A DNA stretch of 64,000 nt from Escherichia coli O157:H7 (GTDB lineage Bacteria > Pseudomonadota > Gammaproteobacteria > Enterobacterales > Enterobacteriaceae). The notes below the pieces were generated by a model that was given only the letters and a program-made list of their open reading frames with translations, searched no databases and was not told the origin of the DNA. The translations under genes were made by a program, and so were the position numbers. Where the stretch lies: the NCBI RefSeq assembly GCF_013167455.1, contig NZ_CP038328.1; one strand, given 5' to 3'. Numbering within the stretch: position 1 is the stretch's first letter; every line of letters begins with the position of its first letter. Shown one piece after another: positions 18,702-21,957 of this stretch.

Positions 18702-18834
18702 CTTAGATATCCTTATAAAAGACGATATTTCATTATCGGTAAATTGGCTTTGCGGGAAATCTCCGTTTACGGACGTAAAGATATAATCTTTTTAAAACAA
18801 TGAATTAAAAAATTAATCTGCTTATTTAATTTTC

Positions 18835-18850
18835 TGGCACGACGGTTGCA
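18835..18850 (+). promoter_or_regulatory. sigma-54 (RpoN) promoter of rtcBA
   Basis: TGGCAC-gacgg-TTGCA, a perfect -24 GG / -12 GC element about 40 bp upstream of the rtcB ATG. Confidence 0.85.
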
Positions 18851-18888
18851 ATTATCAGGACCGCAAACAACGAAAAGAGAAAAACAAA

Positions 18889-20115
18889 ATGAATTACGAA
18901 TTACTGACCACTGAAAATGCCCCGGTAAAAATGTGGACCAAAGGCGTGCCGGTAGAAGCCGATGCGCGTCAGCAACTTATTAATACGGCGAAGATGCCGT
19001 TTATTTTCAAACATATTGCGGTAATGCCTGATGTACACCTGGGTAAAGGTTCCACCATTGGTAGCGTGATCCCGACCAAAGGGGCGATTATTCCGGCGGC
19101 GGTGGGCGTGGATATTGGCTGTGGAATGAACGCACTACGTACCGCTTTAACGGCGGCTGACCTGCCGGAAAACCTGGCGGAGCTGCGTCAGGCGATTGAA
19201 ACTGCGGTGCCGCACGGGCGTACCACTGGCCGTTGTAAACGTGATAAAGGCGCATGGGAAAACCCGCCTGTTAACGTCGATGCGAAATGGGCTGAGCTGG
19301 AGGCCGGTTATCAGTGGTTAACGCAAAAATATCCGCGTTTCCTTAACACTAACAACTATAAACACCTGGGAACGCTGGGAACGGGTAACCACTTTATTGA
19401 AATCTGCCTTGATGAGTCGGACCAGGTGTGGATTATGCTGCACTCCGGTTCACGCGGAATTGGTAATGCCATCGGGACTTACTTTATCGATCTGGCGCAA
19501 AAAGAGATGCAGGAAACGCTTGAAACATTGCCGTCGCGTGATCTGGCGTACTTTATGGAAGGTACGGAATACTTTGATGATTACCTGAAAGCCGTGGCCT
19601 GGGCGCAGCTTTTTGCCAGCCTTAACCGCGATGTGATGATGGAAAACGTAGTAACGGCGTTGCAGAGCATTACGCAGAAAACGGTCAGACAGCCACAAAC
19701 GCTGGCGATGGAAGAGATCAACTGTCACCACAACTATGTGCAAAAAGAACAGCACTTTGGTGAAGAGATCTACGTGACGCGTAAAGGCGCGGTGTCTGCG
19801 CGTGCTGGTCAATATGGAATTATTCCAGGGTCGATGGGAGCGAAAAGCTTTATCGTCCGTGGGCTGGGAAATGAAGAGTCGTTCTGTTCGTGCAGCCACG
19901 GTGCCGGGCGGGTTATGAGCCGTACTAAAGCGAAAAAAATGTTCAGCGTGGAAGATCAAATTCGTGCCACCGTGCATGTGGAATGCCGTAAAGATGCCGA
20001 AGTGATCGACGAAATCCCGATGGCGTATAAAGATATTGATGCGGTGATGGCGGCACAAAGCGATCTGGTGGAAGTTATCTACACCCTACGTCAGGTGGTG
20101 TGCGTAAAAGGATAA
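18889..20115 (+). CDS. rtcB: RNA-splicing ligase RtcB (3'-phosphate/5'-OH RNA ligase)
   Basis: 408-aa ORF, MNYELLTTENAPVKMWTKGVPVEADARQQL... Confidence 0.96.
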   Translation: MNYELLTTENAPVKMWTKGVPVEADARQQLINTAKMPFIFKHIAVMPDVHLGKGSTIGSVIPTKGAIIPAAVGVDIGCGMNALRTALTAADLPENLAELRQAIETAVPHGRTTGRCKRDKGAWENPPVNVDAKWAELEAGYQWLTQKYPRFLNTNNYKHLGTLGTGNHFIEICLDESDQVWIMLHSGSRGIGNAIGTYFIDLAQKEMQETLETLPSRDLAYFMEGTEYFDDYLKAVAWAQLFASLNRDVMMENVVTALQSITQKTVRQPQTLAMEEINCHHNYVQKEQHFGEEIYVTRKGAVSARAGQYGIIPGSMGAKSFIVRGLGNEESFCSCSHGAGRVMSRTKAKKMFSVEDQIRATVHVECRKDAEVIDEIPMAYKDIDAVMAAQSDLVEVIYTLRQVVCVKG

Positions 20116-21147
20116 ATGATGAAAAGGATGATTGCGCTGGATGGCGCACAGGGCGAAGGCGGCGGGCAGATCATGCGCTCGGCGCTGAGTCTGTCGATGA
20201 TAACCGGCCAGCCATTTACCATCACCGGCATTCGTGCCGGGCGGGCAAAACCGGGACTGTTGCGCCAGCATCTGACGGCGGTAAAGGCGGCGACGGAAAT
20301 TTGCGGGGCGACGGTGGAAGGCGCGGAGCTGGGGTCGCAGCGTCTGGTCTTCCGGCCCGGCACCGTGCGTGGCGGCGATTATCGCTTTGCTATCGGTAGC
20401 GCAGGAAGTTGTACGCTGGTGCTGCAAACGGTGCTGCCCGCGCTGTGGTTTGCCGATGGACCTTCGCGTGTTGAAGTGAGCGGCGGTACCGATAACCCGT
20501 CGGCCCCGCCTGCGGATTTTATCCGCCGGGTGTTGGAGCCGCTGCTGGCGAAAATAGGAATTCATCAGCAAACCACGCTGTTACGTCACGGTTTTTATCC
20601 TGCCGGAGGCGGCGTGGTGGCAACGGAAGTCTCGCCGGTGGCATCGTTTAACACCTTGCAACTTGGCGAGCGCGGGAACATTGTGCAGATGCGTGGAGAG
20701 GTGTTATTAGCTGGCGTGCCGCGGCATGTCGCTGAGCGTGAAATCGCTACGCTGGCGGCAAGTTTTTCCCTGCATGAGCAGAATATTCATAACCTGCCGC
20801 GCGACCAGGGGCCGGGTAATACCGTCTCGCTTGAAGTCGAAAGTGAAAATATCACCGAACGCTTTTTTGTCGTCGGTGAAAAGCGCGTCAGTGCCGAGGT
20901 GGTTGCGGCACAGTTGGTGAAAGAGGTGAAACGCTACCTGGCAAGCCCGGCGGCAGTGGGGGAATATCTTGCTGACCAGCTAGTGTTGCCAATGGCGCTG
21001 GCGGGCGCGGGACAATTTACGGTCGCCCATCCCTCATGCCATCTGCTGACCAATATCGCCGTGGTGGAGCGTTTCTTGCCGGTGCGGTTTACTCTGGCTG
21101 AAACAGATGGCGTAACGCGGGTGATGATAACCAAACTCACTGATTGA
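20116..21147 (+). CDS. rtcA: RNA 3'-terminal phosphate cyclase
   Basis: ORF begins [25 protein letters not shown]...; true start may be the second ATG (20119). Confidence 0.93.
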
Positions 21148-21196
21148 AATCCCTCCCGGATCAGACTCATCAGTGTGACTATCCGGTAGAGGTAAA

Positions 21197-21682
21197 TTAC
21201 TCCAGAGTAATGGGATACAGTAAGGTAAGTGACTGGAATGGTGAAGGTACAAAGGCATACTTCAGATAGAAATTGCGTACTGAATCGTCTAAGGCATGAA
21301 CAATGAGCGCACGAACCCCTACCTGTTGAGCTATGGACATTGTGCGATAGACTGCATCTTTCAACAATGCGACGCCCAACCCTTTACCTGCCCAGGCTTG
21401 ATCAATTGCCAGTCTGCCTAATACGACAACAGGCAACGATTCGGGAGCATTACGTCGCATGGCTCCAGGGGCCAAATTACGTTGAATACTGCCTGTAGAA
21501 AGGCAGTAATAGCCGATTACCTGGCGGGTATTGGCAATACAGATAACGTAAACACGAGACAGACCGGAGCTGTGATTTTTTAACGCTTTCTTTTTTAGCC
21601 ATTCATTCATCCCGTGATCGGAACAGCAAAAGTCAGCCAGATTATGTTCAGACGTTAGGGGAGTAGGAGCCGTTATTCCCAT
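21197..21682 (-). CDS. GNAT-family acetyltransferase toxin (TacT/AtaT/ItaT-like; family members acetylate aminoacyl-tRNA)
   Basis: 161-aa ORF with acetyl-CoA-binding motif Q-x-x-G-x-G (QAWAGKGLG); start overlaps the upstream DUF1778-type ORF by 10 nt; N-terminus MGITAPTPL resembles TacT-like toxins. Confidence 0.8.
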   Translation of the reverse strand: MGITAPTPLTSEHNLADFCCSDHGMNEWLKKKALKNHSSGLSRVYVICIANTRQVIGYYCLSTGSIQRNLAPGAMRRNAPESLPVVVLGRLAIDQAWAGKGLGVALLKDAVYRTMSIAQQVGVRALIVHALDDSVRNFYLKYAFVPSPFQSLTLLYPITLE

Positions 21683-21957
21683 GGCGATTTACGATTCATC
21701 AACGCGTTAATTTTGGCCTGACGCTCAGCAGTGATGGGGGCGTCCAGGGCAGCGAGAAACGCATCGTATTGCTCGTCATCAAGGATGAATAGTCGTTGAT
21801 CTAATAAGATGTCTTGCGCTTCACGGCATGCGGCATCCAGCATAAAATCAGTGCGCGATTTTGCGACCAGATTCGCTGCCATATCAATCAGGTCACGCTG
21901 TGAGGCTTTCGCTCTGATATTGATTGGCGCTTCTTTGCTTTCCGGTTTCATATTCAT
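21673..21957 (-). CDS. DUF1778 / ribbon-helix-helix-like antitoxin partner of the GNAT toxin
   Basis: 94-aa ORF immediately upstream of and overlapping the GNAT gene; acidic small protein with N-terminal ...PINIRAKASQRDLIDMAA... typical of TacA/AtaR-class antitoxins. Confidence 0.75.
   Translation of the reverse strand: MNMKPESKEAPINIRAKASQRDLIDMAANLVAKSRTDFMLDAACREAQDILLDQRLFILDDEQYDAFLAALDAPITAERQAKINALMNRKSPWE

Follow-up and report, generated by a model that had tools for sequence, protein, structure and literature searches.

The DNA stretch analyzed here (the window) comprises 64 kb of the Escherichia coli O157:H7 genome and carries a complete RNA repair locus. An intact open reading frame on the minus strand (17103-18701, 532 amino acids) matches the Pfam models RtcR (PF06956, E 1e-84) and Sigma54_activat (PF00158, E 8e-51). 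This gene, which corresponds to ECs_4265 in the Sakai annotation, is rtcR and encodes the sigma-54 enhancer-binding activator of rtcBA. Beyond the rtcR-rtcB intergenic region (18702-18888), two genes follow on the plus strand. The first one, rtcB (18889-20115, ECs_4264), matches PF01139 with an E-value of 2e-134, is also annotated as rtcB in RefSeq and encodes an RNA 3'-phosphate/2',3'-cyclic-phosphate ligase. The second one, rtcA (20116-21147, ECs_4263), matches PF01137 and PF05189 and encodes an RNA 3'-terminal phosphate cyclase. RtcB joins RNA ends carrying a 3'-phosphate or a 2',3'-cyclic phosphate to 5'-OH ends, and RtcA cyclizes 3'-phosphates. The sigma-54 (-24/-12) promoter of rtcBA was located on the plus strand at 18835-18850 (TGGCACGACGGTTGCA, TGGCAC-N5-TTGCA), and the rtcB ATG lies 38 nt downstream. 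TGGCACGACGGTTGCA was the sole match to TGGCAC-N5-TTGCW in the 64-kb window, where 0.15 matches are expected by chance. The dependence of this promoter on sigma-54 and RtcR is established (PMC5175333), and the RtcR ligand is a 5' tRNA half ending in a 2',3'-cyclic phosphate (PMC7790460).

The regulator encoded in the window combines a CARF-type N-terminal domain with a sigma-54 AAA+ domain, and its gene is divergent from the -24/-12 promoter driving rtcB and rtcA. When we compared the locus with E. coli K-12, we found the same gene order, the same sigma-54 promoter and the same flanking genes (glpR and malT). The rtcR gene, the sigma-54 promoter and rtcBA constitute an ordinary conserved E. coli RNA repair operon, and the Pfam and motif scans located all of these elements where the original prediction had placed them. 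The two strains differ downstream of rtcA. In K-12-type strains, about 40 bp with a REP-like hairpin separate rtcA from malT, whereas the window carries an 881-bp cassette instead. A few residues at the C-terminus of RtcA also differ between the window and K-12-type strains.

The cassette encodes a toxin-antitoxin module on the minus strand. The toxin gene ataT2 (ECs4262, 21197-21682) encodes a GNAT protein that is 100% identical over 161 amino acids to chain B of PDB entry 7F37 and matches PF00583 at 22.6 bits (cut-off 20.7). Of the published cloning primers, AtaT2-F is found without mismatch at 21662-21682 and AtaT2-R at 21197-21226. The toxin retains its catalytic tyrosine, Tyr139, which is replaced in the published Y139A control, and this residue is invariant in 27 homologues, as are G103, K108 and D109. 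The antitoxin gene ataR2 (ECs4261, 21673-21951) is located upstream of the toxin gene and overlaps it by 10 nt (21673-21682). Its product is a DUF1778/TacA-type antitoxin (PF08681, E 1e-19, 70.8 bits, cut-off 21), which is identical to chain C of 7F37, the entry that also contains the toxin chain; chain C begins with MKPESK. The original prediction had the antitoxin start at the upstream in-frame ATG at 21957, but this codon is probably not the start. Chain C of 7F37, the RefSeq gene model (a 279-nt CDS) and the primer AtaR2-F, which matches 21928-21951 with one mismatch, all indicate that 21951 (92 amino acids) is most likely the correct position. No NCBIfam model matched either AtaT2 or AtaR2.

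The name AtaT2 was assigned from the primers and the locus tags rather than from the title of the PDB entry, since a literature search for '7F37' returned no relevant paper. The module corresponds to ECs4261-4262, as follows from the number of the Sakai rtcB gene (ECs_4264) together with the published description (PMC7470980). Judged from these identities, the module is AtaR2-AtaT2, a pair that has already been characterized, and not a newly predicted toxin. Compared with the O157:H7 Sakai pair (PDB 7F37), we found the same proteins, the same primer sites and the same position beside rtcA, and no sequence difference. The layout, with a DUF1778 antitoxin gene upstream of and overlapping the GNAT toxin gene, is shared with TacA-TacT of S. 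Typhimurium and with AtaRT, ItaRT and KacAT, although these TacAT-type modules occupy genomic sites unrelated to that of AtaRT2. Among solved structures, TacT is the next best relative of AtaT2 (7F36/5FVJ, E 7e-44), whereas AtaT and KacT are distant (E about 1e-20).

AtaT2 acetylates the glycyl moiety of charged Gly-tRNA(Gly) (PMC7470980, PMC9177977). Toxicity, neutralisation, Gly-tRNA(Gly) acetylation and Ribo-seq data have been reported for the protein identical to ours (PMC7470980, PMC9177977), and thus the expectation that the toxin acts on tRNA proved correct. TacT in vivo and TacT3 likewise target Gly-tRNA(Gly) (PMC9177977). The enzyme stalls ribosomes at all four Gly codons in vivo, and its product, N-acetyl-glycyl-tRNA, is removed in vitro by peptidyl-tRNA hydrolase (Pth) (PMC7470980). 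The toxin had also been considered an RNA-damaging activity, and this part of the original prediction does not hold. AtaT2 N-acetylates the amino acid carried by the tRNA, whereas RtcA and RtcB need 3'-phosphate or 2',3'-cyclic-phosphate ends. Established biochemistry therefore argues against the AtaT2 product being a substrate of RtcA or RtcB, because the toxin would leave the RNA unbroken. The AtaT2 paper (PMC7470980) mentions neither rtc nor the rtc neighbourhood.

Of 5426 complete E. coli genomes, 394 (7%) carried the module, with one copy in each of them and invariably at this junction, and the carriers were O157:H7, O55:H7, O145:H28 and a few others. A query spanning both junctions was covered to at least 80% in 394 genomes, a number equal to the module count. 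All 81 contigs read with the exact protein showed the gene order malT-ataR2-ataT2-rtcA-rtcB-rtcR. In the remaining E. coli genomes the site is empty, and the ends of rtcA and malT are about 40 bp apart. These distributions indicate that the adjacency in E. coli traces to a single lineage-specific insertion. Junction alignment showed that the segment replaced by the 881-bp cassette begins within the 3' end of rtcA, and for this reason the RtcA C-terminus differs from that of empty-site strains, where it reads ...TRVSIE. A repeat search identified a 9-bp direct repeat, CAAACTCAC, that flanks the cassette (left copy at 21132-21140 on the plus strand, right copy at 22013-22021). The right copy is also found in empty-site strains. 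These repeats may represent microhomology or a target duplication. A clean target-site duplication was rejected, since, once one repeat and the cassette are taken out, rtcA has no stop codon and the junction lacks the REP-like hairpin of the empty site. Replacement through microhomology is the more likely course of the insertion event.

Gene neighborhoods of related modules in other species gave a similar picture. Orthologues of AtaT2 with 74-78% identity were flanked by ugp genes and a variable islet in Pectobacterium and adjoined ter genes in Serratia, and on a Salmonella plasmid contig the orthologue lay within the transfer region, between traD and traT. Toxins resembling AtaT2 were present on 3302 plasmids, most of them conjugative. 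Of at least 519 relatives, we inspected 80 diverse homologous loci in species other than E. coli, which together span 1.14 Mb, and rtc genes adjoined the module in none of them. This sample was drawn outside E. coli and the relatives of 65-78% identity, which were covered by exact-protein look-ups and a plasmid search. RtcB occurred within the 80 loci only twice, both times in Gilliamella (L024 and L026), with about 30% identity and 6.5 kb away from the module, and one of the two loci (L024) also encoded RtcR (63% identity over residues 193-525). We rejected these loci as an independent co-occurrence. A five-gene oligopeptide-type ABC transporter separates the module from rtcB, a restriction-enzyme gene lies on one side, and both loci belong to one genus. 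By a rough estimate, about 0.1 loci of this kind are expected by chance in 1.14 Mb of flanking DNA, if the genome size is assumed to be about 4 Mb and the share of genomes with rtcB about 40%. Four other apparent RtcR matches (L005, L022, L036, L068) were unrelated enhancer-binding proteins. They align with RtcR over the generic sigma-54 AAA+ core alone (residues about 180-450), and no RtcB is encoded close to them. On the rtc side, about eight lineages were compared, and no toxin-antitoxin genes were detected downstream of rtcA in E. albertii, S. enterica subsp. salamae, K. oxytoca, Superficieibacter and Chitiniphilus. The enrichment across genomes that had been proposed as a check was thus not seen in the samples taken: the closest orthologues sit elsewhere, and in E. 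coli, the closest orthologues and 80 of at least 519 relatives, we did not find the adjacency recurring in distant genomes beyond vertical inheritance.

The rtcA and ataT2 genes converge, and their stop codons are 49 nt apart; the original prediction had placed the toxin immediately behind rtcBA on the opposite strand. A hairpin is predicted between the two stops at 21152-21192 (-17.2 kcal/mol, z = -2.1), but it lacks a U-tract and is not canonical, and the terminator scan detected no intrinsic terminator between the two genes. On the other side of the cassette, malT, which encodes the activator of the maltose regulon, was identified on the minus strand at 22018-24723 (PF17874, E 4e-106, GerE; malT in RefSeq). 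The distance from the malT stop to the ataR2 start is 66 nt, and ataR2T2 is co-directional with malT and not with rtcBA. The proximity of malT and the shared strand had not been mentioned in the original prediction. A long imperfect palindrome at 21956-22021 (-28.8 kcal/mol, z = -3.9; 1 of 200 shuffles was as stable) overlaps the last codon and the stop codon of malT and encloses a sigma-70-like promoter for ataR2T2 (-35 TGTACA at 21999-21994, -10 TAAAAT at 21977-21972). By analogy with the usual ribbon-helix-helix antitoxins, this palindrome is a putative operator for autorepression by AtaR2.

The converging arrangement would permit interference in cis. Sigma-54 transcription fired by RtcR might pass the weak hairpin, run antisense over ataT2 and ataR2 and lower the expression of the module, so that a labile antitoxin is no longer replenished or the toxin mRNA is silenced, and damage sensing would be coupled to the toxin in this way. 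The 49-nt gap and the lack of an intrinsic-terminator-like site are compatible with such read-through, and in Salmonella sigma-54 transcription continues past rtcA into a downstream toxin-antitoxin module (PMC9879122). However, this scenario is derived from the geometry of the locus, Rho-dependent termination or the hairpin may halt the polymerase, and rtcBA expression is low unless the operon is induced. Moreover, the arrangement arose once and was not found elsewhere. Hence, we regard interference in cis as highly improbable.

The Salmonella module deserves a closer comparison. In S. Typhimurium, an unrelated module, relB/dinJ-yafQ, sits at the same rtcA-malT junction. Like AtaRT2, dinJ-yafQ of strain 14028s, which lies downstream of rsr-yrlBA-rtcBA, is a type II module limited to a sub-lineage, and it is absent from subsp. 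salamae. Its family (a RelB/DinJ antitoxin and a YafQ/RelE-type mRNA nuclease) is unrelated to AtaRT2, and YafQ generates cyclic-phosphate RNA ends whereas AtaT2 does not. The orientations also differ: dinJ-yafQ is co-directional with rtcA, whereas AtaRT2 converges on it. In Salmonella, the transcript from the sigma-54 promoter carries dinJ-yafQ along with the repair genes, and the module is a member of the RtcR regulon (PMC9879122). The ataR2T2 genes are not placed to be regulon members of this kind, since sense co-transcription with rtcBA is impossible from the opposite strand.

The presence of two modules at one junction hints that the gap between rtcA and malT is a permissive landing site. 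Two independent arrivals are mildly more than chance would lead one to expect, and this counts against reading the adjacency as an accident. One might go further and propose that selection favors the docking of translation-targeting toxins downstream of rtcA, where AtaRT2 in E. coli and dinJ-yafQ in Salmonella would have been kept because linkage to the repair operon is advantageous. In favor of selection, two genera carry type II modules of unrelated families at this syntenic junction, and the targets of both toxins are the translating ribosome or its substrates. However, AtaRT2 and dinJ-yafQ point in opposite directions and are each confined to a sub-lineage (the site is empty in S. salamae and in 93% of the E. 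coli genomes), and the other rtc-bearing genera sampled lack a module. Small insertions are generally tolerated where 3' ends converge, and deletion of yafQ had no effect on activation of the operon (PMC7790460). We give selection for this site very little credence.

In its most defensible form, the idea that the toxin induces the rtc system does not involve gene position at all. Depletion of Gly-tRNA(Gly) and stalling at Gly codons might provoke secondary cleavage of mRNA, tmRNA or tRNA, the resulting 2',3'-cyclic-phosphate ends might activate RtcR, and RtcB might then aid the recovery of translation. Tetracycline and the tRNases VapC and colicin D induce the rtc genes, and so does the loss of ybaK, which encodes an aminoacyl-tRNA editing factor (PMC5175333, PMC9650030). 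The system responds to general translation insults and not to tRNA nucleases alone, and thus an indirect response to stalling by AtaT2 is possible. RtcB also acts on tmRNA, which rescues stalled ribosomes (PMC9650030), the stalling by AtaT2 at four Gly codons was observed in vivo (PMC7470980), and rtcR is intact in the window. However, AtaT2 breaks no RNA and Pth clears its product (PMC7470980). GNAT toxins are not known to induce rtc, and the AtaT2 paper does not mention rtc. In Salmonella, YafQ, which does make cyclic-phosphate ends, is dispensable for RtcR activation (PMC7790460, PMC9879122). Finally, such crosstalk would work with the toxin anywhere in the genome and leaves the adjacency, which is not conserved, unexplained. 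We therefore consider it unlikely, although somewhat less so than the two position-dependent explanations.

A broader proposal combines these elements. Here, the position of the O157:H7 cassette would have been co-opted, either because stalling by AtaT2 indirectly yields the cyclic-phosphate signal of RtcR or because RtcR-driven antisense read-through modulates the toxin. With dinJ-yafQ as a second case, toxins that target translation would then have docked repeatedly at the 3' junction of rtcA, and this site would wire them to the RNA repair stress response. We assign a low probability to this proposal, and functional coupling of the module and rtc is unlikely. If it were true, the coupling would link growth arrest by a toxin in a major pathogen with the Rtc response, and this response also affects tolerance to ribosome-targeting antibiotics.

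With good confidence, we conclude that the adjacency is accidental and reflects the place at which a mobile cassette happened to insert, and that module and rtc genes do not form a functional unit. Accidental insertion would have proceeded as follows. An E. coli lineage probably acquired, on one occasion, an AtaR2-AtaT2 cassette of a type that conjugative plasmids often carry. The cassette would have taken the place of about 50 bp where the 3' ends of rtcA and malT converge, and no promoter is disrupted by an insertion there. The cassette appears to be autonomous: AtaR2 neutralizes AtaT2 and probably represses the shared promoter at the putative palindromic operator. Once freed, AtaT2 acetylates Gly-tRNA(Gly) and ribosomes stall at Gly codons, as published work has shown, and Pth clears the acetyl-glycine, as demonstrated in vitro. 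The rtc system answers RNA with cleaved 2',3'-cyclic-phosphate ends, and AtaT2 makes none of these directly.

The main value of this case is the caution it suggests when function is deduced from gene neighbors. The gaps between converging genes are permissive and take up small toxin-antitoxin cassettes, and thus a neighboring operon with a related theme (here a tRNA toxin beside RNA repair) can mimic a functional link. At this locus, toxin chemistry and comparative data both speak against such a link.

We also considered whether rtcR is dead in the O157:H7 lineage, since a frameshift is annotated in strain PV15-279. This was rejected, because the gene is intact in the window. The frameshift is caused by an 11-bp deletion between CTGGCGA repeats, which is carried by 2 genomes only.

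ORF prediction and Pfam searches yielded the gene order glpD, glpE-glpG-glpR, rtcR, rtcB, rtcA, GNAT, DUF1778, malT, malP between 13.4 and 27.7 kb, and the Pfam assignments of RtcR, RtcB, RtcA, MalT and the TacA-type antitoxin were unambiguous. rtcR (17103-18701, minus strand) carries PF06956 and a sigma-54 AAA+ domain, and rtcB (18889-20115) and rtcA (20116-21147) follow on the plus strand. The GNAT gene (ataT2, 21197-21682; Acetyltransf_1 above threshold), the DUF1778 gene (ataR2), which overlaps it by 10 nt, and malT (22018-24723) all lie on the minus strand, with the malT stop 66 nt upstream of the toxin-antitoxin cassette. 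The sigma-54 motif TGGCACGACGGTTGCA at 18835-18850 is the sole consensus match in the 64 kb window, and rtcB starts 38 nt downstream of it. These data confirm the predicted promoter and the predicted neighborhood of rtcR-rtcBA and the GNAT/DUF1778 pair, except that the antitoxin start, originally placed at 21957, is most likely 21951 (PDB 7F37 chain C, RefSeq, published cloning primer).

The toxin shares 100% identity across all 161 residues with PDB 7F37 chain B, and the antitoxin is identical to chain C. Published cloning primers for ataT2 and ataR2 of O157:H7 Sakai match 21197-21226, 21662-21682 and 21928-21951. In Sakai, rtcB and rtcR carry the tags ECs_4264 and ECs_4265, and thus the published genes ECs4261-ECs4262 (PMC7470980) fall exactly at this locus. 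Taken together, the pair is the already characterized AtaR2-AtaT2 module. AtaT2 stalls ribosomes at four of four Gly codons, does not set off the stringent response and forms a complex with AtaR2, and its product is deacylated in vitro by peptidyl-tRNA hydrolase (Pth) (PMC7470980, PMC9177977). The expectation of a GNAT toxin acting on tRNA was therefore correct, and many O157:H7 genomes are identical to the window over this region.

RtcA cyclizes RNA 3'-phosphates, and RtcB joins RNA ends bearing a 3'-phosphate or a cyclic phosphate to 5'-OH ends. The ligand that activates RtcR is a 5' tRNA half with a terminal 2',3'-cyclic phosphate (PMC7790460), and both toxins known to induce rtc, VapC and colicin D, act as tRNA nucleases (PMC5175333). 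The original prediction had called the GNAT toxin an RNA-damaging activity, but this label is inaccurate since AtaT2 leaves the RNA chain whole. Its product is reversed by Pth. AtaT2 might induce rtc indirectly, since tetracycline and a lack of YbaK, an editing factor, likewise induce rtc, and tmRNA is among the targets of RtcB (PMC5175333, PMC9650030). Such crosstalk would neither require nor explain the adjacency, and we assign it a low prior probability.

The module was found as a single chromosomal copy in 394 of 5426 complete E. coli genomes (O157:H7, O55:H7, O145:H28 and scattered other strains), a share of 7% that overestimates its true frequency because O157:H7 is heavily over-sequenced. 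A 1.4-kb query over both junctions reached at least 80% coverage in the same number of genomes (394), and the order malT-ataR2-ataT2-rtcA-rtcB-rtcR was seen in all 81 contigs encoding the exact toxin protein, which were read from a much larger assembly collection. In non-carrier E. coli genomes, a gap of about 40 bp that contains a short REP-like hairpin separates the rtcA and malT ends. The replaced segment starts within the final rtcA codons (21125-21147; about 1725-1736 in the empty-site loci L001 and L002), which alters the RtcA C-terminus and makes the protein about 4 residues longer than in empty-site strains (...TRVSIE). An exact 9-bp direct repeat, CAAACTCAC, flanks the 881-bp cassette at 21132-21140 and 22013-22021. 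The uniform junction and gene order, the replaced rtcA end and these repeats indicate that the cassette entered in one insertion event and was inherited thereafter. The right CAAACTCAC copy is also present in empty-site strains; a simple target duplication was rejected since it does not restore the rtcA stop codon.

At 21956-22021 lies a strong, long but imperfect palindrome (-28.8 kcal/mol when folded as RNA, z = -3.9). It surrounds a sigma-70-like site, the likely promoter of ataR2T2, and reaches into malT, where it covers the final codon and the stop. The palindrome probably serves as the AtaR2 operator, and it may also affect transcripts that read through from malT. The gap from the rtcA stop to the ataT2 stop contains only a moderate hairpin that lacks a U-tract, and a terminator scan found no terminator-like site there. 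Sigma-54 read-through across the toxin genes, and hence antisense interference, is therefore geometrically possible; we infer it purely from this layout and consider its prior probability low.

Outside E. coli, the toxin-rtc neighborhood is not conserved. Orthologues at 74-78% identity lie between ugp transporter genes and a DeoR-type regulator with a variable islet (Pectobacterium), inside a conjugative transfer region between traD and traT (Salmonella) and between tellurite-resistance and sulfur-transport genes (Serratia). AtaT2-like toxins were detected on 3302 plasmids, mostly conjugative, 272 of them at 60% identity or more. We also scanned species-representative genomes, covering 80 loci (45-55% identity, 1.14 Mb with flanks) of at least 519 relatives. 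Here, the antitoxin adjoined the toxin in 79 of the 80 loci and RtcB occurred in only two, both from Gilliamella. Thus, adjacency of GNAT modules to rtc operons, which had been proposed for checking across genomes, was found neither among the orthologues nor in these 80 loci.

The Gilliamella loci were rejected as independent adjacencies since an ABC transporter operon of five genes lies between the toxin module and rtcB. One of them (L024, 17007-20464) encodes a divergent RtcB of 468 aa, about 30% identical to the E. coli protein, and, beyond a DUF6882 gene, an RtcR-like protein (63% identity over residues 193-525); rtcA was not detected in this locus. The other (L026, 17226-18632) has an RtcB of the same type and no RtcR match within the locus. 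These loci may represent a variant organization of the rtc genes. The Pectobacterium islet (L086, 2669-5102) looks like a small defense or toxin islet; it contains, in one strain, an RVT_1 reverse transcriptase with an STM3845-family partner, a SymE toxin-family gene and a faint HicB-like match.

In S. Typhimurium, the same rtcA|malT junction harbors relB/dinJ-yafQ (L091, 6120-6658), which is unrelated to AtaR2-AtaT2 and co-directional with rtcA, whereas ataR2T2 is oriented oppositely. There, dinJ-yafQ and rsr-yrlBA-rtcBA are co-transcribed from the sigma-54 promoter (PMC9879122). The idea of a toxin-antitoxin system beside rtc has thus already been noticed and tested in Salmonella, with a negative signaling result. 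S. enterica subsp. salamae (L095) lacks dinJ-yafQ, and its rtcA runs 4 nt into the malT 3' end. Since two unrelated modules occupy one junction, these data suggest a permissive landing site, and the fact that they point in opposite directions and are each confined to sub-lineages speaks against selection for toxin-rtc coupling. The feature is real and its component parts are known and ordinary; a functional reading of the adjacency finds no support in the comparative evidence, and the chemistry counts against it.

Seen from the rtc side, no toxin-antitoxin genes followed rtcA in E. albertii, S. enterica subsp. salamae, K. oxytoca, Superficieibacter or Chitiniphilus. Chitiniphilus has an expanded operon (L098, 1338-6044) of rtcR, Band_7, a zinc-finger gene, rtcB, an RlaP nucleotidyltransferase gene and rtcA. 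In E. albertii (L100-L102, 4001-5101), rtcB and rtcA form a single fused gene whose 366-aa product matches both the RtcB and the RTC Pfam families, which suggests an internal deletion that would inactivate the repair operon in that lineage; L100 additionally has a shortened malT (562 aa). In the O157:H7 strain PV15-279, rtcR has lost 11 bp between CTGGCGA direct repeats in the region of the CARF domain (18497-18507 in the window, where rtcR is intact) and is annotated as frameshifted; the deletion occurs in only 2 of 5426 genomes.
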